Shown in pieces: positions 2,219 to 29,435 of a stretch of DNA of 64,000 nt; positions within the stretch are counted from its first letter, which is position 1, and every line of letters begins with the position of its first letter. The notes below the pieces were generated by a model, which was not told where the DNA came from, did no database searches, and saw nothing but the letters and a program-made list of their open reading frames with translations. Made by a program: the position numbers and the translations under genes. The DNA is taken from the NCBI GenBank assembly GCA_018669975.1, contig JABHSK010000002.1:73293-137292 (forward strand). Direction: 5' to 3'. The stretch is from Candidatus Parcubacteria bacterium (GTDB lineage: Bacteria > Patescibacteriota > Patescibacteriia > UBA1558 > GWA2-36-10).

Positions 2219-2803
2219 TTATAAATTAAATTTTTTGTCTTTTACCACTTTCTTAAACTGCTGTTTAGCCCGACTCAATAAAGTAGCTATCGTACCCATG
2301 GGCTTCTTTAAAATATCAGATATCTCCTGATAATTTTTATCTTCTAAGTATTTTAAAATTAACACTTCTTGATATTTATCATCTAACTCTTCTAAAACCT
2401 GTGCTACCTTTTGACTCAAATATTCTCTGTCTATTTCCCTACTAATATTAAAATCTGCTATCAAATTATTTAAAATATTTTCAGAGTCCCAATCAATCTG
2501 CTGTGGTCTAGCCTTTAATTTTCTAAAGTTACTAATAACCTGATTGTGCACGATGCGATAAATCCAAGAAGAAAATTTTAGTTTATCATCAAAATTATTC
2601 AAATTTTCATAGACCTTAATAAAGGAATCCTGCAGCACATCCTCTGCATCTTCCTGCCTTATATTAGCTATTCTATTAATATAACGTAATAACTTGGCTT
2701 CGTATCTTTTCATTAAACATAAAAAATAATCTGCCTCGCCTAAAGCAAGACTGACTAACTCTTCATCTGTTTTTCCCTTACAGTTAAACATAACGTTTAC
2801 CAT
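2219..2803 (-). CDS. RNA polymerase ECF-type sigma-70 factor
   Basis: Sigma-70 region-2 signature (DVLQDSFIKVYENL...SWIYRIVHNQVISNFRK) and a region-4 helix-turn-helix (YQEVLILKYLEDKNYQEISDILKKPMGTIATLLSRAKQQF). Confidence 0.8.
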   Translation of the reverse strand: MVNVMFNCKGKTDEELVSLALGEADYFLCLMKRYEAKLLRYINRIANIRQEDAEDVLQDSFIKVYENLNNFDDKLKFSSWIYRIVHNQVISNFRKLKARPQQIDWDSENILNNLIADFNISREIDREYLSQKVAQVLEELDDKYQEVLILKYLEDKNYQEISDILKKPMGTIATLLSRAKQQFKKVVKDKKFNL

Positions 2804-2898
2804 TATCTATATAATACGCATTCTAGTGCATTTTCTTTCATTGAGCAAACAAAAAACTACCTAAAAAACCAGGTAGTTCAGTTTATAATATAAAATTA

Positions 2899-3291
2899 TT
2901 AAAAATTTCTATAGGCATCATCTATCTCATCGTCTGACCAGCCACCTTGAGATCTTAGTGTATCTTTAATGCTACTATCTATCATTCCGGCTTCTCTCGC
3001 TTTATTAATATAATCATGCAAAGCTTTTTGATTATTATCAACATCAACAAATTTAATCCCATATTCTTGCTTCACATATCTATCCCATAGCTTAAAAAAC
3101 AAATGGCCCAAGACATAAGCTGTCGGCACATAAACAACCAAACTAATACCAGCTGTACATATAATAGAGGCTGCCAAGAAAGCAAGACCACCTGATGGTG
3201 ACATGATTAGAAAAAATAAAACAATTATCATTGCTCCCGCTCCTAATTCTTTGGGCTTGTTTCTTTTTCTTGATTTTTGAATCTGTGGCAT
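2899..3291 (-). CDS. small membrane protein with conserved C-terminal GGWSD-EI domain (paralog 1)
   Basis: TM helices followed by a ~40-aa tail HDYINKAREAGMIDSSIKDTLRSQGGWSDDEIDDAYRNF. Paralogous to the adjacent gene. Confidence 0.5.
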   Translation of the reverse strand: MPQIQKSRKRNKPKELGAGAMIIVLFFLIMSPSGGLAFLAASIICTAGISLVVYVPTAYVLGHLFFKLWDRYVKQEYGIKFVDVDNNQKALHDYINKAREAGMIDSSIKDTLRSQGGWSDDEIDDAYRNF

Positions 3292-3297
3292 AGTAAA

Positions 3298-3675
3298 TTA
3301 TTTTAATACATCAAAAGCTTTAGCGATTTCGTTATCTGACCAACCACCTTGGTTTTTTAAATTTACTCCAATTTCTTGATCAGTTAAATTGTTATGTTTT
3401 GCAGATCTTATGTAATCTACCAAGGCTTCTGTATTTTTATCAAGCTTCATTTTACCTTTTCGGCCCGTTCTAATTATTTTTCTTATCAACTTATAAGCAC
3501 CTACTAGTATTATAATTCCCAACGGTCCAAATACTAAAACAATACCTCCATCAAGACCACCGCAAACTATAGCAAAAAATAATAAAAACGCACCCATACC
3601 TAACACAGCTAGAATGCATAATATAGCAATTATTTTTAAAAGTATGCTAAGCGTTGTTTTTGATGCTGCTGTCAT
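3298..3675 (-). CDS. small membrane protein with conserved C-terminal GGWSD-EI domain (paralog 2)
   Basis: Tail VDYIRSAKHNNLTDQEIGVNLKNQGGWSDNEIAKAFDVL aligns with the neighbour. The 5' end overlaps the upstream ORF by 29 nt, so the true start may be an internal Met. Confidence 0.5.
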   Translation of the reverse strand: MTAASKTTLSILLKIIAILCILAVLGMGAFLLFFAIVCGGLDGGIVLVFGPLGIIILVGAYKLIRKIIRTGRKGKMKLDKNTEALVDYIRSAKHNNLTDQEIGVNLKNQGGWSDNEIAKAFDVLK

Positions 3676-4702
3676 TTTTACGACGATTCTCTAATATATA
3701 TATCCAATATTTGCTAGAAGCAATAATTAAGGCTAAATAAAATGGTACAGCAAAAATAACTTCTATCGGCACAGAAGTAAAGGGAAGAGTATAGCCAGAA
3801 AAATTAGCCACTGTACTAGGACCATACACTCGATATTGACTGGCTATCAACCAAGCTTCTATCGGTGTAGTGATTATACCTGCTACCAATAAATAGGCTA
3901 TAAACTTTTCTATTAGGTTAAAATGCACTAAAAATTTATCCACGAAACCAATTGCCAACCATATGATTATAATCCAAATACCAGACATCAAAATGCTAAC
4001 GTCTCTATAAAAATATGACCATGCAGGCAAATTAGCATTGAGAACCATAGGTTCAATCATAATTTCAAAAAATATTACTGCTAGCAAAACAATCAACAAT
4101 TCCCTACCCCACTTAATCTTTTTCATTGGGATAAGCAATTTCTTGTCGATTACTAGACTCCAATATTTATAAAATCCAATAACTAAAGTCATAAATACTG
4201 GGATATAGTAAAAAGAACTCCATGGAATATTAAACCACGGCACAAAATGATCTTTGATAACCTCTAAAGACTCCGGCGCGTAAGCTCTAATCCCTAAACC
4301 CACCACTGCTTTTTCTGCCCATAAAGCTATAATAAATACGAACAATAAATAAAGCAGAAACTTATGCCATTCTTTAAAATGGACTAAATATTTATCTATC
4401 AAAACTACTGGCACTAAAATAATTGTTGACCAACCAATGGTTAGCACCCAAGATACATCACGATAGACATAGGCCAATTCTCCCAATCTAAAATTATGCC
4501 ACATCGGTGCTGTAAAGAATTCAAAAATAAAAACGCCTAATGCAATAATGGCGAATCTTAAAAAAATCTTGTCTGTAATTTTTGATAAAAAGAATAAAGA
4601 TGCTGCAGCCATGACAAAGATAAATACCTCAAAATAAATTATCGGCATAGTGGCAACCTTGTCAAAGTGACAAGCAGCTGAGCTACAAGGTTGAAAAATC
4701 AT
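3647..4702 (-). CDS. polytopic membrane protein with internal tandem duplication
   Basis: Two homologous halves (YRDVSWVLTIGWSTIILVPVVLIDKYLVHF and YRDVSILMSGIWIIIIWLAIGFVDKFLVHF). At least 8 predicted TM helices. Confidence 0.5.
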   Translation of the reverse strand: MIFQPCSSAACHFDKVATMPIIYFEVFIFVMAAASLFFLSKITDKIFLRFAIIALGVFIFEFFTAPMWHNFRLGELAYVYRDVSWVLTIGWSTIILVPVVLIDKYLVHFKEWHKFLLYLLFVFIIALWAEKAVVGLGIRAYAPESLEVIKDHFVPWFNIPWSSFYYIPVFMTLVIGFYKYWSLVIDKKLLIPMKKIKWGRELLIVLLAVIFFEIMIEPMVLNANLPAWSYFYRDVSILMSGIWIIIIWLAIGFVDKFLVHFNLIEKFIAYLLVAGIITTPIEAWLIASQYRVYGPSTVANFSGYTLPFTSVPIEVIFAVPFYLALIIASSKYWIYILENRRKNDSSIKNNA

Positions 4703-4752
4703 AGTTCTTTAATAAGTTATTTAACTATATGTAATATTATAGCACTAAAATA

Positions 4753-5916
4753 TTAGTGTTCACAAGAACAACCTGAACAACCACTCTGTTTTTTATCTGA
4801 AGCATTTAAAAATTCTGAATCCTTCATTTTACAACCCTGCCAGGTAGCCTGGGAAAAATGTGGATGCGTAGACAATTCATCCCAAATTTTATATAGCGGT
4901 TTCTGTAAAATATTTCCAAAACCAGCATGGTTAAAATCACAAGGAGAAATATCACCATATGGTGATGCATAAAAATAACTAGTACCCCCTGAACAACCAG
5001 TGCTACGATAGCTGGTAGCATAGGCATAGATTAAAACTCCCGGATAACTTTTATCTTTATTATATTTTTTACTAAATGTTATCATCTCCTCTATCCAGGC
5101 TCGATTATCTATCAAATCATCACGACTTTTGGCGCGACCGACTGGTACCATGTCAAAAACAAGCACTTCATGCACGCCCAGCTCCTGGCCCAACTCAATT
5201 ATTGCTTTAAGTCGACCGCTACGGAAATCATCTTCACTAATAGTGCACGATAAACCAACCGTTAAGCCAGCTTTTTTAGCTGCTTGTATACCAGCTAGTG
5301 CTTTATCAAAGAGCCCATCCTTGCGTCGCCTTTTATCATGTTCCTCACGATTAGCTGAATCCATAGAGATATAAACTCCATCTAAGCCAGACTGCTTCAA
5401 CTGCTCAGCTTTTTCTTCCAAAAACCATCCGTTAGTAAATAAAATAGCAATTGATAAATCTTTATCAATGCTAGAAACTATTTCTGGTAAATCATCCCTA
5501 AGCAAAGGCTCGCCACCAACTATATTGATAACTGACACACCTAATTCTTGAGCATCCTCTATTAGCTTCTTACTTTGATCTAGGGTCAAAATTTGCCTAC
5601 TCCTATCATCTGCTGATTCAAAGAAACTACAGTGCTCACAATTAACATTACAAGTGTCATTAACTGCAAAGCTCATTAAATTGGGGAAATTACGATTTTG
5701 AATAGTAGAAAAAACTGACCTAGAAAATAAATTAACAGCTGGTTTACTATAAACTGCTGGCGTAGAAAGAGAATACACTGGGTAACCATCACGCCAATGA
5801 ACAACCTTATTATGATTGAGGTAAATTTTATAAACTCGCTCAAAAAAATCTATTGAATATTGAATTGATCTAGTAGAAATAAACCATTTGAATCTAAACT
5901 TGGAAAAAATACTCAT
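4753..5916 (-). CDS. radical SAM enzyme with C-terminal SPASM/twitch-like Cys-rich domain
   Basis: CNVNCEHC (CxxxCxxC) radical-SAM cluster motif, a NIVGGEPLL glycine-rich motif, and a C-terminal C-x12-G-x4-C segment (CSGGTSYFYASPYGDISPC) followed by a CSGCSCEH Cys cluster. Confidence 0.8.
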   Translation of the reverse strand: MSIFSKFRFKWFISTRSIQYSIDFFERVYKIYLNHNKVVHWRDGYPVYSLSTPAVYSKPAVNLFSRSVFSTIQNRNFPNLMSFAVNDTCNVNCEHCSFFESADDRSRQILTLDQSKKLIEDAQELGVSVINIVGGEPLLRDDLPEIVSSIDKDLSIAILFTNGWFLEEKAEQLKQSGLDGVYISMDSANREEHDKRRRKDGLFDKALAGIQAAKKAGLTVGLSCTISEDDFRSGRLKAIIELGQELGVHEVLVFDMVPVGRAKSRDDLIDNRAWIEEMITFSKKYNKDKSYPGVLIYAYATSYRSTGCSGGTSYFYASPYGDISPCDFNHAGFGNILQKPLYKIWDELSTHPHFSQATWQGCKMKDSEFLNASDKKQSGCSGCSCEH

Positions 5917-5935
5917 ATTGAATTATAATTAATAT

Positions 5936-6484
5936 ATGTTAATTAAAGAAATAATATTTTTTATTACACCGCTATTATTAGCTGGTCTAATCCATCACTT
6001 ATTTGTTATTAAATTTGATCTGGTCAAACAACTTGCAAGACCTATTGATAATAACCTATTTTTAGGTGGGCAGCAATTATTCGGTCAGTCAAAGACTTGG
6101 CGTGGCATTATTGTTATGACTGCCTTATCCGGTCTTTTTTACTACTACTTGTCATACTGGATTAATATTGAGACAAATTACCCAGCCCTTATATCTGGGA
6201 TGCTCATAGGCCTCGGCTATGCTCTGGGTGAATTGCCAAACAGCTTTATAAAACGCCGTCTCCATATAGGTGCTAGTCAATCAAATTATAAGGGTTTTAA
6301 AAAAATATTTTATCTTATCGATCAGGTTGATTCTGTAGTCGGTGCTTTAATATTATTATATGTTGTCTACCAGCCATCAATAAACCTGGTGCTATCAATA
6401 TTAATAATTAGTTCTTTACTGCATTTATTAATAGACAGTTATCTGCATAAATTCAGCTACAAAAAATCAAACAATATACAATAA
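5936..6484 (+). CDS. small integral membrane CTP-transferase-superfamily protein (CarS/CdsA-like)
   Basis: About 180 aa with 5 TM helices and a GQSKTWRG motif resembling the KTW(E/R)G motif of CdsA/CarS-type cytidylyltransferases. Only plus-strand gene in this cluster. Weak assignment. Confidence 0.4.
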   Translation: MLIKEIIFFITPLLLAGLIHHLFVIKFDLVKQLARPIDNNLFLGGQQLFGQSKTWRGIIVMTALSGLFYYYLSYWINIETNYPALISGMLIGLGYALGELPNSFIKRRLHIGASQSNYKGFKKIFYLIDQVDSVVGALILLYVVYQPSINLVLSILIISSLLHLLIDSYLHKFSYKKSNNIQ

Positions 6485-7117
6485 ATAATAAATAGCCGCG
6501 CCAGCAGACACTGGTACCACCAAATTATCCAAACCTTTACCAAATAAACCTTCTAAGAAGCTAACCAATAAAGCAGCTATTATTGCGAAAACGAAATCTA
6601 ATGCAGATAATTGACCCTTAACAAACCAGACTACTCCCAATAATACCAACAATGTCACTATAAAAAACAAAACACTGCCCAGCCATGTTTTTTCTCCAGT
6701 GAGATTGTATTTTTTTTGTCCAAATTTATAACCAATCACGCCAGCCAAACCATCGGCTAACGCTAAAATCAAAACCGCGCCCTGAAAAATGATAGCCTTA
6801 ATTGGCACAAAAGTAACAAAAGTAACTGTCAGTCCAAGTGGAAACAAAACCGCGCCCGAACTATGCCCGTTTATTTTATGAACACTGTCTAATAATTTCT
6901 GCCTTTTTATAATTAATAAAAATAAAGCGAAAAAAATACCAATAACCACTGCCATTGGTACTCCAAACCAAACTGGTAACAACAAAGAGACAAAACCACC
7001 GCCAATATGAGCAATCTTTCTAGAATACTCTGTCCGCATACCCCGACGATAAAAAAACTCACCTGTCAAAAATACAGCTACATACAAAATTAAAATTATA
7101 ATTAAATGCCAAATCAT
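6467..7117 (-). CDS. polyprenol (dolichol/phytol) kinase-like CTP-dependent membrane kinase (CdsA/DolK superfamily)
   Basis: YRRGMRTEYSRKIAHIGGG, GEKTWLGS, ALADGLAGVIGYKFG and C-terminal LEGLFGKGLDNLVVPV motifs, as in the DolK/VTE5 family. Polytopic. Confidence 0.55.
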   Translation of the reverse strand: MIWHLIIILILYVAVFLTGEFFYRRGMRTEYSRKIAHIGGGFVSLLLPVWFGVPMAVVIGIFFALFLLIIKRQKLLDSVHKINGHSSGAVLFPLGLTVTFVTFVPIKAIIFQGAVLILALADGLAGVIGYKFGQKKYNLTGEKTWLGSVLFFIVTLLVLLGVVWFVKGQLSALDFVFAIIAALLVSFLEGLFGKGLDNLVVPVSAGAAIYYLLYIV

Positions 7118-8130
7118 ATTTGTTTTTGATAAGCCCGATAATACCTATAAATATCTGCACCCTTAGTCAAATTCAAGATGCCTTGATTATCTTCACGCAT
7201 AGTAGAAAATATAAATTCCTTAACGTTCTGCTTTTTAGCTTGCTGATATACCCAATAAAACATAGCTTTGCCAATAGCCTGCCCCTGAAATTTACTGCCG
7301 ACTGCAAAGGTTTTAATTATAACTCTATCTGAATCACTTACATCTGCAACAGCAAAACAAAAAGCAGCAGCACATTTTTTCTTATCTAACACCAAACAAC
7401 TAAAAGGCAGGGTTGATGTTCTATCTAAATCTTTATAATAATGGGCAAACTCTTCTAAGCTAATTTTAGCAAATGACCAGGAATCTACAAATACCTCGCT
7501 AATCATCTGAAATATAGCTTGCAAACTAGCCTGATAATTTTTCTCATTAATGTGCTCAAAAACAAATCCATTGGCCACTACCTCCGAAAAATCTTGAGCA
7601 AAATTAGTAAAACCGCAATCTTTCAATGAAGATATAGTAGAAACATTTTGCTGAGCTATTTCAAAATTTGCGTTTTCAAATAAATCTTTATAATAGGCCC
7701 TACAAAATGGCTCTAGAGAAAAAGGCTGTCTGTCTTCAGGAAATGACACTCGCCAATTTTGCCAAGTAGTTAAATTAATCGGCCCACGTAAAATTTTTCT
7801 ACCCAGTTGTCGTGCGTGCTCCGATATAGCGTCAAAAATTTTATCTGCGTAGACTTGATTATTTTTAGACTCAAAACAACCTAGTAAGGCCAATTCTGCT
7901 GGCAAACGAGAGTCTGTAATAACCGCTGCGTGAGCCACTGGCTTGCCCTGATCCAACAACAAAAAATTATCTACAGAACCAAAATTAAAAAAGGGATTAC
8001 TAATATTATTAATCTTTCTAGCCTCCTCTACCTTTGTCCTTGCGACATCTGGATAGTCCCGATAAATATCTACAATCAGATCACTATAATCGCTAAGCAA
8101 GCCGTCAATTTTGTAATTAATGACTTCCAT
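7114..8130 (-). CDS. GNAT-family N-acetyltransferase domain protein (C-terminal) with unknown N-terminal domain
   Basis: C-terminal VIIKTFAVGSKFQGQAIGKAMFYWVYQQA (Q/RxxGxG/A acetyl-CoA motif). The N-terminal ~190 aa are unassigned. Confidence 0.5.
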   Translation of the reverse strand: MEVINYKIDGLLSDYSDLIVDIYRDYPDVARTKVEEARKINNISNPFFNFGSVDNFLLLDQGKPVAHAAVITDSRLPAELALLGCFESKNNQVYADKIFDAISEHARQLGRKILRGPINLTTWQNWRVSFPEDRQPFSLEPFCRAYYKDLFENANFEIAQQNVSTISSLKDCGFTNFAQDFSEVVANGFVFEHINEKNYQASLQAIFQMISEVFVDSWSFAKISLEEFAHYYKDLDRTSTLPFSCLVLDKKKCAAAFCFAVADVSDSDRVIIKTFAVGSKFQGQAIGKAMFYWVYQQAKKQNVKEFIFSTMREDNQGILNLTKGADIYRYYRAYQKQI

Positions 8131-8743
8131 AAAAATGTAAATACAACATTACTGCAATTAAAGCTGCCAAAAAGATAACAAAGCCACTAATTTTTTTTGG
8201 TTTTGGGAAAGGGAAAGTAGACAACATTAAAATACTAGTCAACATAATTAAAACATCTGATATATAGACAAAATATTGCACGGCATTAAGCTTAAATATC
8301 AAAAACAACAGAACCAATAAATGACTAAAGACTACTGGCAGACCTGGATAATTAAAACCAGACACATAGCCCAACACATTGAAACGTGCTAAACGAAAAA
8401 CTCCACTGGCTAAAAAAATAAAAATTACTATAATAGACCCGATGTCTTGCAAACCGAAAAATAAATAAAAAGCCAAAGCTGGATAAACTAAGTAAATAAA
8501 AACATCAACTTGCCCGTCTAGTAAACGACCAAAATCTGAGCTTATACCTAATTTTCTAGCTAACCAACCATCTGCAAAATCAACAATAAAAGCTAACAGC
8601 ACCAAGGCAAAAGATAAATAGAATTGACCCTGCAATAGAAAAACTATTGCTAACCAAACTGTTAATAGAGCCAATAAAGTAATGGCGTTTGGTCCATTAA
8701 AAAATTGATTATTTTTTTCATTGTCCATAGATGATTTCTCCAT
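8117..8743 (-). CDS. CDP-alcohol phosphatidyltransferase
   Basis: Exact match to the D-G-x2-A-R-x8-G-x3-D-x3-D signature (DGWLARKLGISSDFGRLLDGQVD). Polytopic membrane protein. Confidence 0.85.
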   Translation of the reverse strand: MEKSSMDNEKNNQFFNGPNAITLLALLTVWLAIVFLLQGQFYLSFALVLLAFIVDFADGWLARKLGISSDFGRLLDGQVDVFIYLVYPALAFYLFFGLQDIGSIIVIFIFLASGVFRLARFNVLGYVSGFNYPGLPVVFSHLLVLLFLIFKLNAVQYFVYISDVLIMLTSILMLSTFPFPKPKKISGFVIFLAALIAVMLYLHFYGSH

Positions 8744-10430
8744 TAGAAAAATTTAAGCTAATATTAGTATCATTTTTGATCATTTTGGTGGCCTTGTCCA
8801 CTCCTACCAAACAAGGAATTTGTAATTCTCTAGCAACAATGGCCGCGTGAGACAACATCCCACCTCTTTCCACCACAATTCCCTTAACCAGGGGGAAAAC
8901 TATTGACCAACCAGGATCAGTCTGCCTAGTGACTAAAATTTTATTCACATAGTCAGCCTTAGGATCAAAGTCGGTCAGCACCAAAGCAGTGCCGCTAACT
9001 ATATCTTGATCTATTCTAGAGGCGACTGATCCGGATAGTGATGTTTTGTCAACTGAATGACTGATTTTATGTAAAAATTCTTTTTCTTTTTCACAAATAG
9101 CTTTTCTAGTTTCTATTCTACGTGGTAAATCAATTTCTCGCCAGGCATCCCCTGCTATTTGTCGCTGATTTATTAATTTTTCAACCTGTTCTCTGTTCAT
9201 TTTTTTATCAATCAAAGAAAATATCTCTCCAATTTTTAAATAAAATATATCTCGCTGTGATTTTAATAAGTTCTGCTGAGACAATCTATCCCCCATCTCT
9301 AAAAACACCCTCCTGGCAAAACCAAAAATTAAAGTGCGCTTAAATCTAGTCTCTTCCCGACGACGAATTGAATTAACAGACCACTTAACAATAAATTTCA
9401 ACAATGCTTTTTTAAACACTGAGCAATTTTTATAATCTAAAGTTTGAATATTGCCAGCAGATCCCACATGATTACTATTATTCCTATCACTAACCACTAT
9501 CTTTTGTAAGAAACTAACAAATACCTGTGGAGATTCTTGCAATGTAATTGCCTCCAATTTTAATTCATTAGGTGATCGACTACCAAACTTTTTTAAATAC
9601 TGAAAAATTATCTGACTAACTTTATTGTCTTGAAATTGACTATTCAATTTATCCCAAACAAAATTTTCATCACTATTTTTAAACAACTCACGTAGATCAC
9701 TATCTGCTTTTATTTTTTGACTAATCTTAATGACCTCTAAGCCTGGATCCAACGAAATTAATGAACTGTGTGATTGCATCCTTAGATGATTATAAACGTT
9801 ATCTTCTTGAAGCCATTTTTTAAAAAGCTTATCAGCTATCCCTGTACTAATCATGACTGCTAAATCATTAGCGATTGGGACCTTCCACCTAGTTGTTAAA
9901 TCTTTAACCAAAGATAAATAAATCCTCCTGAGCCGTTTTAAATCAAAAGATTTTAAGTCTAACTTATCTGATTGCTCAAATATCTGATCAAACTTTTTGT
10001 TAAAATTATTAACTAAGACTCCCATGAAAATAAAGGTAAAAATCATTTTAACAAACTGCCAAATCATAACCGACAAATCGATAAAATACCTTTGCCAAAA
10101 ACCATACCGCTGACCATTATCATGGTCATGCTCCTTTTGCACACCAAGCATTTTTTCCAAAAAACGACGATTAAATTTATAGCCTGGCAAAAAAGAGATT
10201 AATCTATACCAATTAATCAAATCATAATACATACGATGCCCAATAAAAACTACCATCTGCCTAAACATATCATCGTTAGCCTTTATGGTACCTTGGCTAA
10301 CACCCATCATCTGACAAAAACTTTTATAAACCTCTTGATAGACATATCGAGCAAAAGAAAAAGTTAGTGGAGTTGTAATTCCTGAATAACTCTCTGCCAA
10401 ATTAGAATTGTCATAAATATTTTTAGACAT
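8718..10430 (-). CDS. PEP-synthase / rifampin-phosphotransferase-like dikinase, substrate-binding plus phosphohistidine swivel domains (no ATP-grasp, no PEP TIM barrel)
   Basis: C-terminal PEP-utilizing-enzyme mobile domain GIVVERGGMLSHAAIVARELQIPCLVGV (catalytic His). N-terminal ESYSGITTPLTFSF. The ~430-aa central region is unassigned. Confidence 0.75.
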   Translation of the reverse strand: MSKNIYDNSNLAESYSGITTPLTFSFARYVYQEVYKSFCQMMGVSQGTIKANDDMFRQMVVFIGHRMYYDLINWYRLISFLPGYKFNRRFLEKMLGVQKEHDHDNGQRYGFWQRYFIDLSVMIWQFVKMIFTFIFMGVLVNNFNKKFDQIFEQSDKLDLKSFDLKRLRRIYLSLVKDLTTRWKVPIANDLAVMISTGIADKLFKKWLQEDNVYNHLRMQSHSSLISLDPGLEVIKISQKIKADSDLRELFKNSDENFVWDKLNSQFQDNKVSQIIFQYLKKFGSRSPNELKLEAITLQESPQVFVSFLQKIVVSDRNNSNHVGSAGNIQTLDYKNCSVFKKALLKFIVKWSVNSIRRREETRFKRTLIFGFARRVFLEMGDRLSQQNLLKSQRDIFYLKIGEIFSLIDKKMNREQVEKLINQRQIAGDAWREIDLPRRIETRKAICEKEKEFLHKISHSVDKTSLSGSVASRIDQDIVSGTALVLTDFDPKADYVNKILVTRQTDPGWSIVFPLVKGIVVERGGMLSHAAIVARELQIPCLVGVDKATKMIKNDTNISLNFSNGEIIYGQ

Positions 10431-10435
10431 CCGTT

Positions 10436-11323
10436 CTAGATAAACAAACTAATGATAAAAACTATATCTGCTACCATCGCAAATAAAATTGACGTATTAA
10501 ATACTTGTTTAGCCCCTTTATTGCTAGGATGTTTGATAAATTTATAAACAAACAACATCAAGACTATACAAATACAAAAATTTATATAAAATAAACTTGT
10601 TGAAAAAAATAAATCTATCTTAATATATGACCAAAGCACTGCAAATGATAAAGCAGTCACTAAAATTGACGCACCCTTGATACCATATTGAGCAGTATAT
10701 GTATCTCTAGAGGCAATTTCCATATCTTTTGGTCTAAATTTTCTAGTCACCTCCAGTAAAAACAACTGGCTACCCAAAAATACAAATAAATACCAAAAAA
10801 ATGGGCTGTTTATTTCTGGCCAAGTAGCCCCACTCAGTGCAAAGATATAAAAAAATAAGGGTAATAATAAAATTTCATGAGAGGCAATGTACACCGTGAA
10901 GTGCTTCTTAAGCCATTTAGCAACAAAGAATTCCTTAAACATCAACAAAGAATAAAACATTGCTACTACAAACATTAATAAAGAAAATAACCCCGCAGAC
11001 AAAGAAATTAAAACTTCTAAAATTAAAATTAGCCAAACAATCTTTTTTAATTCTACCAATTTAATCAACCCCCTAACTACTGGCCTATCTGGATAATGCT
11101 CTTTATCATGATCATAATCTTTAAACTCATCAAATAACCTTAGACGAAATAAAAAAAGCCATAGGGCTAGGCTAGGCCAAACGAATGCCCATAAATTTTC
11201 CGTGCCTAAATAAAATTGAATACCCCAGGCAGCTACCAAAGAAAAAATTAAAGACAAAGGTATGAATTGCTGCAATGGAAAACGCTCTTTTAAATACTGG
11301 GCAAAGTTTTTGTAAGTCAACAT
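10436..11323 (-). CDS. UbiA-family aromatic/isoprenoid prenyltransferase
   Basis: Asp-rich motif FDEFKDYDHDKEHYPDRPVVRG (NDxxDxxxD...RPL-like). About 8 TM helices. Confidence 0.7.
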   Translation of the reverse strand: MLTYKNFAQYLKERFPLQQFIPLSLIFSLVAAWGIQFYLGTENLWAFVWPSLALWLFLFRLRLFDEFKDYDHDKEHYPDRPVVRGLIKLVELKKIVWLILILEVLISLSAGLFSLLMFVVAMFYSLLMFKEFFVAKWLKKHFTVYIASHEILLLPLFFYIFALSGATWPEINSPFFWYLFVFLGSQLFLLEVTRKFRPKDMEIASRDTYTAQYGIKGASILVTALSFAVLWSYIKIDLFFSTSLFYINFCICIVLMLFVYKFIKHPSNKGAKQVFNTSILFAMVADIVFIISLFI

Positions 11324-11329
11324 ACAAAA

Positions 11330-12091
11330 TTATAAGGTAGTTATTGGTCTGGCTTGTAAAATAAATGTTTTATCATCCTTGATGCACCATTCAATATCAC
11401 AGGGATATCCAAAATGTTTTTCTATCTTCAAACAATCATCTGATAATTGCCTTAACTGTTCATCTGTTATATTGATTTTAGATTTGGTCTGCACATCAAT
11501 CACTTTACTGGTTTTTTTATCAACTACATAACAATTCGGCGTCACCTCACCGTTAACAAGTTTATCGCCAGAGCCAGCACAAGCCTCTATTATCATTTCG
11601 TTTTTTTGTTTGGAGATAGGATTAACTGTAAAACATACTCCTGCCATATCTGCATCTATCATCTCCTGCACCACTACAGCCATGTGAATATTTTTAATTT
11701 TTATTCCCTGCTGTTTTGCATAGGCCTTCACTTTTTCAGAAGATACTGCTCGCCAACAATCCTCTACTGCAGCTAATACCTTAGACTTCTTAACATCGAG
11801 GTAACTCTCAAAAATTCCCGCCCAAGATGCTTGAGCTGAATCCTCAACCAAAGCTGAAGACCTTACTGCCGCCTTCTTCAATTTTAAAGCATCAAATCTT
11901 TCTAGAATCTCCTCACTCGTCTTTGAATCAATCTGCTTTGATCTTTTATAACGATTAAAGCTCGGTGTCAATATTACAAAACCAGGCGGAACTAAAAAAT
12001 CAGCTGATATCATGTCACCTAAAGATGCTGCTTTGCCGCCAGCTCTATTTTTATCCTTTCTATTTATTTGATATAAGTTTTTTGTATTCAT
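11330..12091 (-). CDS. stand-alone PPDK_N/ATP-grasp nucleotide-binding domain of a PEP-synthase-like dikinase
   Basis: GGKAASLGDM, VPPGFVIL, AVRSSALVEDSAQASWAGIFESY, MAVVVQEM, GVCFTVNP, IEWCIKDDKTFILQARPIT. This is a complete ATP-grasp domain that ends at the ORF stop. Confidence 0.8.
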   Translation of the reverse strand: MNTKNLYQINRKDKNRAGGKAASLGDMISADFLVPPGFVILTPSFNRYKRSKQIDSKTSEEILERFDALKLKKAAVRSSALVEDSAQASWAGIFESYLDVKKSKVLAAVEDCWRAVSSEKVKAYAKQQGIKIKNIHMAVVVQEMIDADMAGVCFTVNPISKQKNEMIIEACAGSGDKLVNGEVTPNCYVVDKKTSKVIDVQTKSKINITDEQLRQLSDDCLKIEKHFGYPCDIEWCIKDDKTFILQARPITTL

Positions 12092-12683: not shown

Positions 12684-13319
12684 TTATATTTTACCAACTA
12701 AATCTAATCCTGGTTTAAGCGTATCTTCACCTGGCTCCCAATTAGCTGGGCAAACCTGATCACCATATTTATGAACAAATTGAGCGGCCTGTAGCTTACG
12801 AAGTAACTCTTTGCTACTACGGCCAATGCCATTGTCATGTACTTCCATAGTCTTAAGATGTCCTTCTGGATCGATAATAAAAGTACCACGCAAAGCAATA
12901 CCTTCTTCCTCAATCAAAACTCCATACTTATTGCTAATCTCATGAGTAGGATCAGCTACCATAGGAAATTTAATTTTCTTAATAGTTTCACTATCATCAT
13001 GCCAAGCTTTGTGCACAAAAGCTGTATCAGTAGAAACTGACAAAACTTCAGCATTTAATTTTTTGAGTTCTTCATAGCGATCAGCCATGTCACCCAACTC
13101 AGTTGGACAAACAAAGGTGAAGTCTGCTGGGTAAAAAAATAGTATCACCCACTTACCTTTATAATCTTCCAATTTTATCTTCTTAACTTGATCCTCATAA
13201 TAGGCCTCAGCTTCAAACTCTGGTGCTAATTGCCCTATCTCTGGCGTGCAGTTTAAAAACATATCGTCATCACAACAAGAGTCTCCACCACAACACATAT
13301 TATCTTTTTTTTCTTCCAT
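12684..13319 (-). CDS. typical 2-Cys peroxiredoxin (AhpC/TSA family) with possible N-terminal Cys-rich extension
   Basis: FFYPADFTFVCPTE peroxidatic-Cys motif and C-terminal GDQVCPANW resolving-Cys motif. The first 20 residues (MEEKKDNMCCGGDSCCDDD) may be an artefact if the true start is the internal Met (MFLNCT...). Confidence 0.85.
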   Translation of the reverse strand: MEEKKDNMCCGGDSCCDDDMFLNCTPEIGQLAPEFEAEAYYEDQVKKIKLEDYKGKWVILFFYPADFTFVCPTELGDMADRYEELKKLNAEVLSVSTDTAFVHKAWHDDSETIKKIKFPMVADPTHEISNKYGVLIEEEGIALRGTFIIDPEGHLKTMEVHDNGIGRSSKELLRKLQAAQFVHKYGDQVCPANWEPGEDTLKPGLDLVGKI

Positions 13320-13350
13320 AATTTTATGTATTATTTTTTATTAAAATTAA

Positions 13351-13965
13351 TTATTTTGCTGCTTGATAAAATTCAGCTACTCTTGACCAATTGATCACCT
13401 GCCAAAAATTATCTACAAATTCAGCTCGTTTATTCTGATATTTTAAATAATAGGAATGTTCCCAAACATCGATGCCTAAAATAGGCTTTTGTCCCAATGA
13501 ATATGGACTATCTTGATTACCAGTCTTACTGATTTGCAATTTACCATCAGCTACCACTAGCCAGGCCCAGCCTGAACCAAAAACTGTCATAGCAGCTTGA
13601 GTAAACTCTTCCTTGAATTTATCCCAATTGCCAAACGTTTTTTCAATATCAGCCAGTAAATCCCCTTCTGGTTTTACATTTTTATTATCTGGTCCCATAA
13701 TCTGCCAAAAAAATCCATGATGGACATGTCCACCGCCATGGTTTCTAACAGCTAGCCTAATTTCCTCTGGCACACTGTCCAAATCTGCTAAAATTTCTTC
13801 GGCTGATTTCTTGTATAAATCTGGATACGCTTCCAGGGCTTTATTAAAGTTAGTTGTATAAGCAACATGATGCTTATCATGATGAATTATCATTGTCTCT
13901 TCATCAATATATGGCTCCAATGCATTATAATCATAAGGCAATGAAGGTGTTTCAAATTTTTTCAT
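13351..13965 (-). CDS. Fe/Mn superoxide dismutase
   Basis: HHDKHH and DVWEHSYY motifs. Length 204 aa. Confidence 0.9.
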   Translation of the reverse strand: MKKFETPSLPYDYNALEPYIDEETMIIHHDKHHVAYTTNFNKALEAYPDLYKKSAEEILADLDSVPEEIRLAVRNHGGGHVHHGFFWQIMGPDNKNVKPEGDLLADIEKTFGNWDKFKEEFTQAAMTVFGSGWAWLVVADGKLQISKTGNQDSPYSLGQKPILGIDVWEHSYYLKYQNKRAEFVDNFWQVINWSRVAEFYQAAK

Positions 13966-13976
13966 GAATTTATTGA

Positions 13977-14561
13977 TTAATATTCTTCAGATTTAACCTG
14001 ATAATAGGCTTGCGGATGATCACAAGACGGACATTCATCTGGCGGAGTCTCACCAACATGAATATAGCCACACTCGCGACACACCCAAACTGTTTGTTTT
14101 CCCTTTTTAAATAATGTTTTCTTTTTTAATTGCTCCAATAATTTTTTATAACGCTCTTCATGGTGTTCCTCAGCAATAGCTATTGATTCGAATCTCTTGG
14201 CAATGTCATCCAAGTCTTCCTCCTTGGCTACCTTAGCAAATCCTGGATACATGTCTGTATATTCATAATTTTCACCATCAATAGCAGACTGTAAGTTCTC
14301 TTCTGTGTTACCGTAAATAGTCCCCGCCTTGGCCTCAACATACATCTCTGAAAAATCCTCGCCTAATTTTTCCTTGAGCTCTTGAATGTGCTCAAACAAT
14401 CGTTTAGCATGAACCTTTTCTTGCTCAGCTGTTTCTGCAAAAACAGCAGCAATCTGCTCATATCCTTCCTTTTTAGCAACCTTTGAATAATAGGCATACT
14501 TATTTCTAGCCTGTGACTCACCAATAAAAGCCTTTACTAAATTGTCTAATGTTTTTTTCAT
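13977..14561 (-). CDS. rubrerythrin
   Basis: N-terminal ferritin-like di-iron helices (E...H pairs) and a C-terminal rubredoxin-like CRECGYIH...CPSCDHP. Confidence 0.85.
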
Positions 14562-14567
14562 AATAAT

Positions 14568-15587
14568 TTATTTTACCTTATTTATATGTTTATTCTTTAT
14601 AAAAGCTTTAATATTGTCAATTGTAGTATCAAGAATCCTCTGCAGTGCTTCATCAGAATTAAAAGCATTATGAGGCGTCACCAGCACACGAGGATCTTGG
14701 ATCAACAGATGACCCTGCAAAATGGTTTTCAAATCACAGCTTTTTTGAAAAGGTTTAGTTAGAAGCTCTTTTTCTTCTTTAATAAAACATTCCTCCTCTA
14801 AAACATCTAGACCTGCACAGGAAATAATTTTTTTATCTAACGCGGTAATTAAAGCTTGAGTTTCAACTAGGCCGCCACGTGCTGTATTAATTAAACAGGC
14901 TCCTTTTTTAATCAATTTAATATTACCTTTATTTATTAGGTGGTGAGTCTTTTTATTATATGGTGCATGTAGACTAATAACATCGGAGTTAGCTAGAAGT
15001 TTTTCCAAACTTACATACTTAATACCCAACTGCTTAGCTAACTTAGCATCTTTTCGAGTATCGGCTACAATTACTTTCATTTCAAACCCTTTGGCCATTC
15101 TGGCTACATGTTGACCGATGTGCCCCAAACCAACAATGCCTAAAGTTTTTCCCTTTAAATCAAAGCCCCGGACATCAGATAAATCAAAATCATAATTTTT
15201 CATCTTCTCTATTGACCTTGGTACATGTCGAGATAAGGACAGCATTAAAGCCATAGTATGCTCAGCTACGGTATTTTCTCCATAAAAAGGTACATTGCTA
15301 ATTGGAATTTTTTTAGATCGACAAGTTTCTAAATCAATATGATCAAAACCAGTAGACATGGTGGTAATAAACTTTAAATTTGATAACTGATCTATAATCT
15401 GTTTATCCACTTGAGAATATATAAATACTGCCAATACATCTGAATTCTTTATCTTCGGCAGCATAGCTTTGGTCAGTGGCTTTGAAAAAAAGTTGAGGGA
15501 TAAATTTTTAATATCACTTAATTTTTCTTCTAGATATTTTTGTTCCCACTTTTCTGTTTCCAAAAAACTTATATTTAACTTTGGCAT
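14568..15587 (-). CDS. D-isomer-specific 2-hydroxyacid dehydrogenase (NAD-binding)
   Basis: GIVGLGHIGQHVARMAKGFEMKV Rossmann motif. Catalytic-domain layout of D-LDH/PGDH/GDH-like enzymes. Confidence 0.8.
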   Translation of the reverse strand: MPKLNISFLETEKWEQKYLEEKLSDIKNLSLNFFSKPLTKAMLPKIKNSDVLAVFIYSQVDKQIIDQLSNLKFITTMSTGFDHIDLETCRSKKIPISNVPFYGENTVAEHTMALMLSLSRHVPRSIEKMKNYDFDLSDVRGFDLKGKTLGIVGLGHIGQHVARMAKGFEMKVIVADTRKDAKLAKQLGIKYVSLEKLLANSDVISLHAPYNKKTHHLINKGNIKLIKKGACLINTARGGLVETQALITALDKKIISCAGLDVLEEECFIKEEKELLTKPFQKSCDLKTILQGHLLIQDPRVLVTPHNAFNSDEALQRILDTTIDNIKAFIKNKHINKVK

Positions 15588-15600
15588 GGTTTTATATTAT

Positions 15601-15972
15601 TTAATATTTATTTTTACACTTGTTACAATCCCCAAAAAAATTAACCTGATAATTATTAATCTTACCTGCTTTAACATTTTTTGGGAAATTTATACTTTTA
15701 TCAAAATTAGGCATATCAAAAACCTGTTTACAATCCTGGCAAATAAAATGTGTATGATGATCTAAATCTGCATCATAGTGACTGACGTCTGAAACAATCT
15801 CTTTAACTAGATTTTCCTGCGAAAAGTTCTTGAGAATTCTATAAACAGTAGCCTTACTAATAGTAGGCAATTTTTTTCTTATTGCTAAATAGACTTGATC
15901 AACAGACGGGTGTGTTTTAACACCTTGCAAATGATCTAAAATCACTTGTTTTTGTATAGTATTTCTTTGCAT
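15601..15972 (-). CDS. Fur-family transcriptional regulator, likely PerR
   Basis: Winged-helix N-terminus, HHTHFICQDCKQVFD and a C-terminal CNKC metal site. Heads an operon of peroxide/superoxide defence genes. Confidence 0.8.
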   Translation of the reverse strand: MQRNTIQKQVILDHLQGVKTHPSVDQVYLAIRKKLPTISKATVYRILKNFSQENLVKEIVSDVSHYDADLDHHTHFICQDCKQVFDMPNFDKSINFPKNVKAGKINNYQVNFFGDCNKCKNKY

Positions 15973-16638: not shown

Positions 16639-16779
16639 AATATCTAATTAATTATTATTTACTATAAGTACATTAAGGTTAACATCTTTAGACTATATGG
16701 CAAACCCTTGACACAATTTTTTATGCATGCTAACGTCAAATGTTTACAATTGAATATCTTTCAATGAAGCAATGAACGA

Positions 16780-16833
16780 CTATCTATATTTGGACGCTTG
16801 GATAGTCGGGAGCTAGTAGCGTAACCGGCATTG
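16780..16833 (+). ncRNA. copy 1 of a tandemly duplicated ~55-nt element (candidate small RNA / cis-regulatory leader)
   Basis: ctatctatatttggacgcttggatagtcgggagctagtagcgtaaccggcattg, followed at 16850-16880 by a terminator-like hairpin (cacca...tggtg plus T-run). Confidence 0.35.
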
Positions 16834-16930
16834 AGTATTTTTATACTCTCACCAAAAACGCCTAGCCAAATGGTGTTTTTTGTAAATAAAAGCCCTTTTT
16901 ACAACACAAAATATTCGATGAGACAAAGAA

Positions 16931-16987
16931 CTATAGTCTATATTTGGACGCTTGGATTATAGGGAGTCAGTAGCGTAACCGGCATTG
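16931..16987 (+). ncRNA. copy 2 of the tandemly duplicated ~55-nt element
   Basis: ctatagtctatatttggacgcttggattatagggagtcagtagcgtaaccggcattg (about 90% identical to copy 1), followed at 17008-17042 by the hairpin acgtctca-gattaa-tgaggcgt plus T-run. Confidence 0.35.
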
Positions 16988-17139
16988 TTTTTTGCTGTGT
17001 TTAAAATTGGCCAAAAACGTCTCAGATTAATGAGGCGTTTTTGTTTCTCATAAAATGCTTTAGTCAGTAAAGACCCAATAATATTCATGCTCTACCTGGA
17101 TAACCTAGGTAGAAAACCATACCCTCAGGAGGTAAAATC

Positions 17140-17862
17140 ATGAAGCGTTTCTTTATCCTCACCCTAGTCCTCGTCACCAGCATCGTCTTTGTTGGTTGCG
17201 ATCAGAGTGATCCGATCAGTGTGACTGTCCCTGACCTTGACGAAACTGGCCCGTCTATCACTGCTGACGAAGTTCATACTGAATTCCTGACTGAGCTTTA
17301 TGCTAATCAGGATTTTGCCAAGATGAACAAGTCGGCTCAGTCCCATGATGCTACCAGGGCTGCCAATGATATTTTGGCTCGCTATGGCGAGGCTCCGATG
17401 ACCGAAAAGCAGGTCGCTGATGCTATTGAAGAAGGTCGTCGTATGGCCAAGATGGATCCCGAAGCACTGATCGCTAGCATCCTTGATGCTGACGACCTTG
17501 TCTGGTGGCACCGCTTTGCTGATGAAGCTACCGCTCAGAATTGCCGCCAGATCTACACGGCTCACTGCCGTAGCTATGGTGCTCCCGTTGCTGGTAGCAC
17601 TCTCGATACCATGATTGGCGTGGCTATGTCTTCAGGTGAATTCTGGGGCGAATATCGCAAGAATGACATGCCTCGCTATCACAATCCCTATGTGCCCCAG
17701 CAGGGCGAAAAGGGTTGGAGAGGATTCTTCCGCTTTGTCGTGGCTGTGGCTGTTGACGGTGGCGCCGGTGCTGCTTCGGCTGCCGGTGGACCGATTGTTT
17801 CGGGTGTTGTTGGTGGTCTGGCCAGCACTGGTGCTGATCATATCATCTTTGGTGGTGACTGA
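17140..17862 (+). CDS. lipoprotein with Gly-rich C-terminal tail (GC-richer, likely horizontally acquired)
   Basis: Lipobox LVTSIVFVGC. C-terminal GGAGAASAAGGPIVSGVVGGLASTGADHIIFGGD. Strong GGAGG Shine-Dalgarno. Codon composition visibly GC-richer than the flanks. Confidence 0.5.
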   Translation: MKRFFILTLVLVTSIVFVGCDQSDPISVTVPDLDETGPSITADEVHTEFLTELYANQDFAKMNKSAQSHDATRAANDILARYGEAPMTEKQVADAIEEGRRMAKMDPEALIASILDADDLVWWHRFADEATAQNCRQIYTAHCRSYGAPVAGSTLDTMIGVAMSSGEFWGEYRKNDMPRYHNPYVPQQGEKGWRGFFRFVVAVAVDGGAGAASAAGGPIVSGVVGGLASTGADHIIFGGD

Positions 17863-28655: not shown

Positions 28656-29435
28656 TTATTTTAATAGTTTTAATATCTCACTCTTTTTCCTCTTAGCCTC
28701 CAATTCACCAAACTTTATAATTTCTTTAAATTTTTTTTCTGTTTCTAATAGACCATAGGGGCTAGTGTTTGGTGTTAATAAAACATAACTATCTTTTGGA
28801 ACGCTTTTTATTTTTTCGGTTGTTATCTCTTGCTGCATTATCTTAATACTAGCACCTAAAACATCCAGCAAGTTTATCCTTTGTTTTTTACCTAAACTCT
28901 TATAAGGAGAAACATTTACCATGACATAATGTTTTATGTTTTTTGGAATAATTGAAAAGGGTACTTGGTTCAAAACGCCCCCGTCAATATAATATTGATT
29001 ATTAATCTTAGCTGGACTAAAAATACCTGGCACAGCTATACTAGCACGAATCGCTTTCATTAAATTACCCCTATCAAACACTACTTCAGAGCCACTAGAA
29101 ATATTAGTAGCATTTATGTACAGTGGTATTTTCAAATCAGCGAAATTATCTTTGCCAATAAACTCAAGAAATAATTTTTCCAATTTATTTAAATTTTTTA
29201 TACCCAAAGTGTTTAAAGAAAAATCAAAATTCTTATAAATTTTATTACTCAATATAAAGTCTTCTATCTCTTCTCCTGTTTTTCCAGAAGCATAAAAAGC
29301 TCCAATAACACCTCCCACGCTACAGCCAGCAATTACGCTCACATTTACATTAAGTTTATCCAAAACCTTTAGGACTCCAATATGTGCCATGCCTCTGGCA
29401 CCTCCTCCTGATAAAACTAAAGCTGTTTTTTTCAT
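28656..29435 (-). CDS. patatin-like phospholipase
   Basis: GGGARGMAHIGVL oxyanion motif, GCSVGG (GxSxG nucleophile) and a DGG catalytic Asp motif (YIDGGVLN). Confidence 0.8.
   Translation of the reverse strand: MKKTALVLSGGGARGMAHIGVLKVLDKLNVNVSVIAGCSVGGVIGAFYASGKTGEEIEDFILSNKIYKNFDFSLNTLGIKNLNKLEKLFLEFIGKDNFADLKIPLYINATNISSGSEVVFDRGNLMKAIRASIAVPGIFSPAKINNQYYIDGGVLNQVPFSIIPKNIKHYVMVNVSPYKSLGKKQRINLLDVLGASIKIMQQEITTEKIKSVPKDSYVLLTPNTSPYGLLETEKKFKEIIKFGELEAKRKKSEILKLLK

Follow-up and report, generated by a model that had tools for sequence, protein, structure and literature searches.

The DNA considered here is a stretch of 64,000 nucleotides from a Candidatus Parcubacteria bacterium (assembly GCA_018669975.1, contig JABHSK010000002.1, positions 73,293 to 137,292 of the forward strand), termed the window throughout. 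Between positions 2899 and 12091 it carries a compact block of eleven genes encoding isoprenoid-transferring, CTP-activating and headgroup enzymes, a radical SAM enzyme, several membrane proteins and what appears to be a water dikinase divided between two genes. Bacteria that belong to the candidate phyla radiation (CPR, or Patescibacteria) have been described as incapable of making membrane lipids, and where they obtain their lipids is a question still open (PMC7242380; PMC11665869); no mechanism of lipid uptake has been identified (PMC11665869). From the sequences, we suggest that 2899–12091 forms one conserved module for lipid biosynthesis or lipid remodelling in a Parcubacteria-type (CPR) bacterium, a reading that is held tentatively and has somewhat less than an even chance of being right.

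Gene organisation of the block

The eleven genes are listed below in the order in which the minus strand is read.

11330–12091, minus strand: ATP-grasp (PPDK_N) half of a putative split RPH-like water dikinase, 253 amino acids (aa) (PF01326)
10436–11323, minus strand: UbiA-superfamily membrane prenyltransferase, 295 aa (PF01040)
8718–10430, minus strand: substrate-binding and swivel-His half of the putative split RPH-like water dikinase, 570 aa (Rph_4th, PF00391)
8117–8743, minus strand: CDP-alcohol phosphatidyltransferase, phosphatidylserine-synthase-like, 208 aa (PF01066)
7114–8130, minus strand: tandem-GNAT acyl-CoA N-acyltransferase, 338 aa (GNAT Pfam match)
6467–7117, minus strand: DolK/phytol-kinase-like membrane protein with a predicted CdsA (CTP-transferase) fold, 216 aa (model fold and motifs)
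5936–6484, plus strand: CarS-like CTP:lipid-phosphate cytidylyltransferase, 182 aa (PF01864), antisense to the rest of the block
4753–5916, minus strand: radical SAM enzyme with a twitch or partial-SPASM domain, 387 aa (PF04055, SPASM)
3647–4702, minus strand: TM351, a polytopic membrane protein with an internal duplication (half-against-half alignment), possibly lycopene-cyclase-like, 351 aa
3298–3675, minus strand: small membrane protein with a C-terminal QGGWSDxEI motif, 125 aa, paralogue of the 2899–3291 product
2899–3291, minus strand: small membrane protein with a C-terminal QGGWSDxEI motif, 130 aa, final gene of the block

Between five and seven of the 11 products are integral membrane proteins. 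A sequence-only reading of 4753–12091 had counted nine genes, eight of them on the minus strand; the listing of open reading frames (ORFs) gives eight, with seven on the minus strand. That reading was right to place only the CarS-like gene on the plus strand (ORF 5936–6484 is the sole plus-strand frame of the eight) and to describe the spacers as tiny or negative, for by ORF coordinates they run from −26 to +19 nt. Its domain calls also held, with UbiA, CarS-like, CDP-alcohol phosphatidyltransferase, GNAT and radical SAM/SPASM all above Pfam thresholds in hidden Markov model searches; what it missed was the identity of two phosphoenolpyruvate (PEP)-synthase-like ORFs and the extension of the block. 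The conserved genes reach downstream to 2899, three genes past 4753, which makes 11 in all, and a terminator-like hairpin (2879–2854) directly follows the last of them (2899–3291).

Conservation in CPR-type loci and beyond

Eighty metagenomic loci and several loci from metagenome-assembled genomes (MAGs) were searched with the proteins of the window. About 20 distinct metagenomic loci show synteny for the 11-gene set; because the set recurs so widely while UbiA is only 40–60% identical to that of the window, it is more than a chance association. The synteny check in related genomes, proposed with the sequence-only reading, thus finds the gene set kept together. The typical order starts with UbiA, the C-terminal part of the dikinase, the CDP-alcohol phosphatidyltransferase, GNAT, the DolK-like gene and, on the opposite strand, CarS; it continues with the ATP-grasp half, radical SAM, TM351 and one or two small membrane proteins, and the final three elements are at times found together upstream of UbiA instead. 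For a count of occupancy we took the 12 distinct loci in which UbiA has 6 kb or more of flanking sequence on each side. The C-terminal dikinase part, the DolK-like gene, radical SAM and TM351 are each present in 12/12, the CDP-alcohol phosphatidyltransferase in 11/12, CarS and a small protein in 10/12 each, the long GNAT in 9/12 and the ATP-grasp half in 7/12. A short form of GNAT replaces the long one in four loci.

Homologues of UbiA carry the names of Paceibacterota, Woykebacteria and Elusimicrobiales, and a protein identical to that of the window is present on the 163-kb metagenomic contig ERZ27237598 k141_11351; GCA_040903525.1 is an example of a MAG with the cluster. An identical UbiA protein is also found in a locus (L006, 1–3572) where it lies beside CTP_transf_3 and GFO_IDH_MocA genes and the ATP-grasp gene is replaced, an arrangement explained either by rearrangement in a strain or by a chimeric assembly. 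A second radical SAM gene, of the B12-binding type, stands immediately after the CarS-like gene in another locus (L016, 15175–16545).

A scan of genome contigs with UbiA returned a single locus, in a Sericytochromatia MAG. This MAG belongs to a second group of loci, mostly of 60–70% GC, where UbiA is about 30% identical to the protein of the window and the set is reduced to a core of four: UbiA, a dikinase fused into a single chain of about 900 aa, a tandem GNAT and a DolK-like protein that is longer, at about 450 aa. These loci have no CarS, CDP-alcohol phosphatidyltransferase, radical SAM or TM351. Their core adjoins genes for HMG-CoA reductase, a DUF3419 protein and an AMP ligase of the fatty-acid-CoA-ligase type, and the presence of HMG-CoA reductase links it to isoprenoid supply. 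An example of this cluster is found at 2790–11938 of locus L089, with others in L052, L054, L057, L061 and L011, and no published description of it was found. The fused dikinase belongs to NCBIfam family NF004881, named 'phosphoenolpyruvate synthase' (915.7 bits for the L011 protein against a cut-off of 883); we know of no tested function for this family, and the annotation of many dikinase-family members as phosphoenolpyruvate synthase looks like misannotation.

Genes of lipid metabolism also border the loci with the full set. HMG-CoA reductase abuts one of them (L026), a PlsC acyltransferase and a cis-prenyltransferase lie beside others (the cis-prenyltransferase in a Woykebacteria locus), and further extras are a fatty-acyl-reductase-type short-chain dehydrogenase/reductase (SDR; NAD_binding_4), AMP ligases, a PlsC–AMP-ligase fusion and an alpha/beta hydrolase. 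Through such neighbours the module is connected with the metabolism of isoprenoids and acyl lipids. Together with the conservation of the set as a unit, they bear out the earlier suggestion of a lipid-related module.

Candidate enzymes of prenyl transfer, CDP activation and headgroup transfer

The UbiA protein matches PF01040 over residues 31–276 with 50.8 bits (cut-off 34.2), and its multiple hydrophobic segments are those of a polytopic membrane protein of this superfamily. Its Asp-rich prenyl-diphosphate motif, recognised in the sequence-only reading, is D65-E-x-x-D69-x3-D73 and is invariant in 39 homologues; in the second half of the protein only E191, R194, K195 and Y209 are invariant, with D207 nearly so. 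The searches give no sign that the enzyme belongs to the MenA/UbiA quinone clades: no quinone or heme-O equivalog (MenA/UbiA/CyoE) was matched in NCBIfam at E ≤ 0.01, and the family profile matched no MenA, UbiA, CyoE or COQ2 structure in the PDB. The sole significant solved relative of the profile is digeranylgeranylglyceryl phosphate synthase (DGGGPS; 6m31, 31.6 bits, E = 9e-7), and chlorophyll synthase is a marginal match. Ortholog-level similarity to DGGGPS is not reached, with 24.2 bits against a cut-off of 269 for PRK12884, which we take to be the archaeal DGGGPS-like model of the UbiA family.

The CDP-alcohol phosphatidyltransferase carries the exact signature of its superfamily, as the sequence-only reading had it (D58-G-x2-A62-R-x8-G72-x3-D76-x3-D80), conserved in 17 orthologues, and scores 68.4 bits against PF01066 (cut-off 22). 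The nearest solved structure to its profile is the phosphatidylserine synthase of M. jannaschii (7pow/7b1k, E = 4e-21), while PgsA (2.5e-6) and PIPS (1.5e-5) are about 15 orders of magnitude worse. Archaetidylserine synthases are its top NCBIfam matches; the scores are below the equivalog cut-offs, at 76.6 bits for TIGR00473 (cut-off 107) and 84.6 bits for NF038087 (cut-off 240).

Two members of the CTP-transferase superfamily had been proposed. For the CarS-like protein a family match is clear (PF01864, 56.1 bits against a cut-off of 22), so that the ORF does have a CTP-transferase hit; it scores 71.7 bits against the equivalog NF003114 (cut-off 148), and the motifs KT-R-G, GELP-SF-KR and (Q)-D-S are invariant in its family. 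The DolK-like protein of 216 aa is put in the superfamily provisionally, by its predicted fold and motifs and not by a sequence-family match: PF01148 gives only E = 0.029, and searches of NCBIfam and of the PDB, by sequence and by profile, return nothing. The predicted model has the CdsA fold. The family conserves RK..H, DxxAxxxG, KTxEGS and E...GxDN, which are presumably the motifs of dolichol and phytol kinases, and several homologues are named dolichol/phytol kinase by the Joint Genome Institute. On the model, the call is accepted at superfamily level, with kinase and cytidylyltransferase undistinguished. Aligning the DolK-like and CarS-like profiles with hhalign gave a weak local match at the common KTxxG motif with a probability of 23%, and we reject it as proof of common ancestry.

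In 16/16 loci the CarS-like gene runs antisense to the other genes of the block. At its far end it shares 18 nt with the 3′ end of the DolK-like gene, and 19 nt separate its start from the start codon of the radical SAM gene. This constant inversion suggests separate or antisense-coupled regulation. A promoter-like site is present at 5900–5929, by the CarS-like gene; since promoter-like sites are no commoner than in shuffled sequence (38 observed against 41.2), little weight is placed on such calls.

Possible chain modification and the archaeal comparison

The radical SAM protein matches PF04055 (88.8 bits) and, in its C-terminal region, SPASM PF13186 (24.6 bits against a cut-off of 21.5). Its CX3CX2C motif (C89x3C93x2C96) is invariant, mean column identity in the family is 63% and an N-terminal extension of 80 residues is conserved. 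The description of this enzyme as having a SPASM-type auxiliary cluster holds for the family match, the SPASM match and the CX3CX2C motif; the full 7-Cys SPASM motif is absent. The C-terminal region conserves only C308, C326 and C362, and with three invariant Cys the auxiliary domain is best described as twitch-like or a partial SPASM. The closest relatives are BlsE, MoaA, SkfB and PqqE among solved structures, together with AhbD/NirJ. The GDGT-MAS/Tes structure 7tol aligns with residues 76–284 only, at 52.3 bits, below those four enzymes, and the protein is 387 aa long against 526 aa for the 7tol chain. An identity as Tes, GrsA or a maturase of ribosomally synthesised peptides was rejected, the best matches being generic small-molecule SPASM/twitch enzymes.

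The sequence-only reading saw in these genes a lipid module analogous to the archaeal core of DGGGPS, CarS and headgroup enzyme, with Tes added. The lipid-related unit stands; the specific archaeal analogy is only partly supported and fails on several points. In a pathway of that type UbiA would serve as DGGGP synthase, CarS would form CDP-archaeol, the CDP-alcohol phosphatidyltransferase would yield archaetidylserine and the radical SAM enzyme would join chains in the manner of Tes/GDGT-MAS. The similarities that recommend it are DGGGPS as the only significant solved relative of UbiA, the CarS family match with conserved motifs, archaetidylserine synthases as the top NCBIfam matches of the headgroup enzyme and GDGT-MAS among the PDB matches of the radical SAM protein. 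However, Pfam tables covering most of the 64-kb window contain neither geranylgeranylglyceryl phosphate synthase (GGGPS/PcrB) nor glycerol-1-phosphate (G1P) dehydrogenase, and no recurrent extra family annotated in the related loci (SDR, alpha/beta hydrolase, AMP ligases, HMG-CoA reductase, DUF3419) could be either of them. The scores of the three shared enzymes fall far under the equivalog cut-offs (24 against 269, 71.7 against 148 and 84.6 against 240), the radical SAM protein is short, twitch-like and nearer to BlsE, MoaA, SkfB and PqqE, with 7tol matched in the core only (52 bits), and the scheme has no role for the dikinase, the DolK-like protein and GNAT, which are the most widely conserved parts. 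An archaeal-type ether-lipid pathway is in our view distinctly unlikely. The cluster itself is not to be read as an archaeal pathway; it is a further case of archaeal-type lipid families (CarS, PssA-type, DGGGPS-like UbiA) in bacteria, and as such bears on the 'lipid divide'.

TM351 consists of two halves that align with each other at E = 3e-19, which marks an internal duplication. The family is small, with 100 representative relatives among 1.84 billion proteins, and searches of the PDB by sequence and by profile gave no match. Five relatives match the whole of the 92-position PF18916 profile at 15–21 bits against a threshold of 27 (E = 4e-4 to 0.04); the protein of the window has no PF18916 match itself, and the distant relatives from the search of 1.84 billion proteins add only one further sub-threshold match to Lycopene_cyc. 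That TM351 might be an enzyme protonating isoprenoid double bonds is, on these similarities, no more than a hint. The two small membrane proteins are paralogues that have in common a C-terminal module of about 45 residues ending in QGGWSDxEI. They match no Pfam family; members of theirs occur in 22 loci, and the homologue in Woykebacteria loci is 315 aa long.

A split water dikinase and the acetyltransferase

The 253-aa protein matches PF01326 (PPDK_N ATP-grasp) with 201.6 bits, and the 570-aa protein matches PF00391 (PEP-utilizers swivel) with 79.4 bits, as well as Rph_4th in precomputed Pfam. The profile of the 570-aa family matches the rifampin phosphotransferase (RPH) of Listeria (5fbs/5hv1, E = 7e-43) over the substrate-binding and swivel-His domains, and its catalytic His is H528, inside the invariant GGMLSHAAIVARE. 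All three modules of the water-dikinase family (ATP-grasp, substrate-binding, swivel with catalytic His) are present between them. By domain content, the products of 11330–12091 and 8718–10430 are evidently the two halves of one RPH-like water dikinase, with the UbiA gene in between. Enzymes of this family catalyse the reaction ATP + X-OH → AMP + Pi + X-O-P by way of a phospho-His. The dikinase is encoded by two genes in every CPR-type locus and is fused in the relatives outside CPR. In the substrate-binding region of the C-terminal part, residues about 116–141 form a strongly hydrophobic stretch, FIDLSVMIWQFVKMIFTFIFMGVLV, which would be compatible with association with a membrane or with a lipid as substrate.

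Identity with RPH proper or with a PigC ligase was considered and rejected: the enzyme is made from two genes, and the halves score far under the equivalog cut-offs, with 116.8 and 162.7 bits for RPH (NF041857, cut-off 999) and 111 and 181 bits for PigC (cut-off 1300). PigC and RedH ligases do appear among the NCBIfam matches of the dikinase family, which raises the alternative that the product of the cluster is a small prenylated molecule of, for example, the meroterpenoid or siderophore-like kind, with the dikinase as a PigC-like ATP-dependent activating enzyme. The AMP ligase, GNAT and HMG-CoA reductase of the non-CPR version would suit this too, that combination being reminiscent of the mevalonate-derived acyl transfer by which fungi make siderophores. 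It is hard to reconcile with a cluster in which five to seven of eleven products are integral membrane proteins, in which CarS-like and phosphatidylserine-synthase-like enzymes have no obvious role toward a soluble product and with which no nonribosomal peptide synthetase, polyketide synthase or exporter is conserved in related loci. A small-molecule product is accordingly the most improbable of the alternatives considered here.

The GNAT protein has its domain match above threshold and a tandem-GNAT fold. The call made from sequence was therefore correct, and the enzyme is moreover a tandem GNAT of the type that acetylates amines of small molecules.

The structural neighbours of this tandem GNAT acetylate amino sugars, a point that could place the cluster in the recycling of a polyprenyl-phosphate carrier or the making of a polyprenyl-phosphate-linked envelope precursor, the lipid being a carrier and not a bulk membrane lipid. 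DolK-like kinases make polyprenyl-phosphate carriers, and the fold and motifs of the DolK-like protein, along with the cis-prenyltransferase near the cluster in the Woykebacteria locus, would agree with such a role, as would the ability of UbiA-family enzymes to act on polyprenyl phosphate, exemplified by decaprenyl-phosphate phosphoribosyltransferase. Set against this, the related loci do not conserve a glycosyltransferase, flippase or polymerase along with the cluster, and a PssA-like CDP-alcohol transferase and a CarS-like enzyme are what marks the chemistry of phospholipid headgroups. We think a carrier function very doubtful.

The kinases also fit a salvage of host-derived lipids, in which the dikinase and the DolK-like protein would re-phosphorylate scavenged lipid alcohols (diacylglycerol, monoalkyl- or monoacylglycerol, polyprenols), CarS and the CDP-alcohol phosphatidyltransferase would rebuild phospholipids and UbiA with the tailoring genes would decorate them. 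RPH-type enzymes phosphorylate bulky hydrophobic alcohols, and the homology of the dikinase to RPH speaks for this possibility, as do the Aas-like PlsC–AMP-ligase fusion, alpha/beta hydrolase and AMP ligases of related loci and two patatin-like genes in the window. For CPR bacteria, an absence of lipid synthesis and an enrichment in lysolipids are reported (PMC7242380). On the other side, the cluster encodes no transporter, and its most conserved element, the pair of UbiA and dikinase, is also found beside HMG-CoA reductase in free-living high-GC bacteria, which points to de novo supply. Salvage is unlikely on this balance, though it deserves to be taken seriously. The patatin-like phospholipase genes lie at 28656–29435 (minus strand) and, as a weak match, 57132–58031 (plus strand), and could serve host-lipid scavenging.

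Proposed pathway

Under the reading of the block as a lipid module, the proteins can be arranged in a sequence of steps. The DolK/phytol-kinase-like protein would phosphorylate an isoprenoid alcohol with CTP. The two-piece RPH-like dikinase would use ATP and the phospho-His route to place a phosphate on a hydrophobic substrate, which could be either a prenyl phosphate, whose diphosphate would then serve UbiA as donor, or the UbiA product, phosphorylated at its hydroxyl to become a substrate for CarS. UbiA, to which the ether-forming DGGGPS is closest among solved structures, would transfer the prenyl group to an alcohol acceptor; the CarS-like enzyme would convert the resulting lipid phosphate to a CDP-lipid; and the PssA-like CDP-alcohol phosphatidyltransferase would exchange CMP for a serine-type headgroup, the amine of which may then be N-acetylated by the tandem GNAT. 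The radical SAM enzyme, the duplicated, cyclase-like TM351 and the two small membrane proteins would tailor the isoprenoid chain. In the reduced loci, the DUF3419 protein may play a role that matches serine attachment by the PssA-like enzyme of the full set, given that the tandem GNAT is common to both; we assume here that BtaA, the enzyme of homoserine headgroup attachment, is a member of the DUF3419 family.

Family membership, intact catalytic motifs and the co-inheritance of eleven genes support this pathway. The role of the dikinase is its least certain step; a function in donor supply or as a product kinase is suggested by the universal pairing of the dikinase with UbiA and the DolK-like protein. 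Several points weigh on the other side. We infer every substrate along the route, and neither the cluster nor the Pfam tables covering most of the window contain a polyprenyl-diphosphate synthase or an enzyme that would supply a glycerol-phosphate backbone. The second Asp-rich motif of UbiA is non-canonical (E191xxR194K195 ... D207-T-Y209, without DxxxD), the lycopene-cyclase link of TM351 is below threshold and the ATP-grasp half is not in the cluster in 5/12 loci. The absence of CarS and the CDP-alcohol phosphatidyltransferase from the non-CPR version means that the core must work without both. We also know of no precedent for a phosphate-to-diphosphate step in the RPH/PEP-synthase family.

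The strongest form of the proposal is that the cluster constitutes an autonomous CPR route to a class of membrane lipid not seen before, a phospho-(N-acetyl)serine-type lipid anchored by an isoprenoid whose chain is cyclised or cross-linked, with the dikinase acting as a lipid kinase that possibly converts prenyl phosphate to prenyl diphosphate. This we regard as rather unlikely in all its parts. To our knowledge, no such lipid-kinase role has been reported for dikinases of the RPH/PEP-synthase type.

The enzyme superfamilies of the cluster are known; their combination is uncharacterised and conserved. A literature search found no description of it, and it is absent from the Lipocone paper and from Coleman et al. 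For the question of where CPR bacteria obtain their lipids, a conserved set of 11 genes with isoprenoid, CTP-activation and headgroup enzymes offers a clonable target. The RPH/PEP-synthase-like dikinase family is, in addition, linked to membrane-lipid genes across several bacterial groups, which suggests a lipid-kinase function for it.

Other features of the window

The region immediately upstream of the cluster (12684–15972, minus strand) is a compact set of oxidative-stress genes, with a peroxiredoxin, a superoxide dismutase of the Fe/Mn type, rubrerythrin, a FUR regulator and a 2-hydroxyacid dehydrogenase as products. It is followed by two tandem cyclic di-GMP-II riboswitch aptamers on the plus strand, at 16756–16839 and 16910–16993, with scores of 73.1 and 71.9 bits where the gathering threshold is 53.5; downstream of these aptamers, a 240-aa ORF at 17140–17862 has no Pfam match. 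Further along, 44146–48438 (minus strand), beside genes for pyruvate:ferredoxin oxidoreductase, encodes a protein of 1430 aa with only faint TSP3_bac and Big_13 matches, which may be a surface or adhesion protein.

Comparison with known systems

The closest parallel in archaea is the CDP-archaeol branch, which uses the same three superfamilies (UbiA-type, CarS-family and PssA-type), and their catalytic motifs are intact here. The differences are that G1P dehydrogenase and GGGPS were not found in the tables and loci described above, that the three proteins fall far under ortholog-level cut-offs and that the host is bacterial (CPR). The RPH-like dikinase, DolK-like kinase, tandem GNAT, radical SAM enzyme and TM351 are extra obligatory partners, which are not known as such in archaea.

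RPH and related PEP-synthase-like water dikinases have the same three-module architecture as the dikinase of the cluster, with the catalytic His in GG(M/L)xSHxA(I/V)(V/I)ARE; PigC/RedH, flavonoid phosphate synthetase and glucan water dikinase are among these related water dikinases. Unlike RPH, the enzyme here is made as two polypeptides with the UbiA gene between their genes, and its genomic context is one of membrane-lipid enzymes and not of antibiotic resistance.

In C50-carotenoid synthesis, lycopene elongase, a UbiA-family enzyme, is paired with the heterodimeric lycopene-cyclase-domain proteins CrtYe/Yf. The cluster resembles this pair in linking a UbiA-family gene to a membrane protein of two lycopene-cyclase-like repeats, a similarity that is sub-threshold here; it differs in having no phytoene synthase or desaturase, and its remaining genes are of the phospholipid type.

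Phytol salvage in plants and cyanobacteria, which feeds tocopherol and chlorophyll synthesis, employs the phytol kinase VTE5, the phytyl-phosphate kinase VTE6 and a UbiA-family prenyltransferase. The likeness lies in a CTP-dependent prenol kinase of the DolK/CdsA superfamily upstream of a UbiA-family enzyme, with a second kinase needed to make the diphosphate donor. The candidate for this second kinase in the Parcubacteria-type cluster is an RPH/PEP-synthase-type dikinase and not a VTE6/DUF92 protein, and enzymes of CDP activation and headgroup transfer are added to the scheme.

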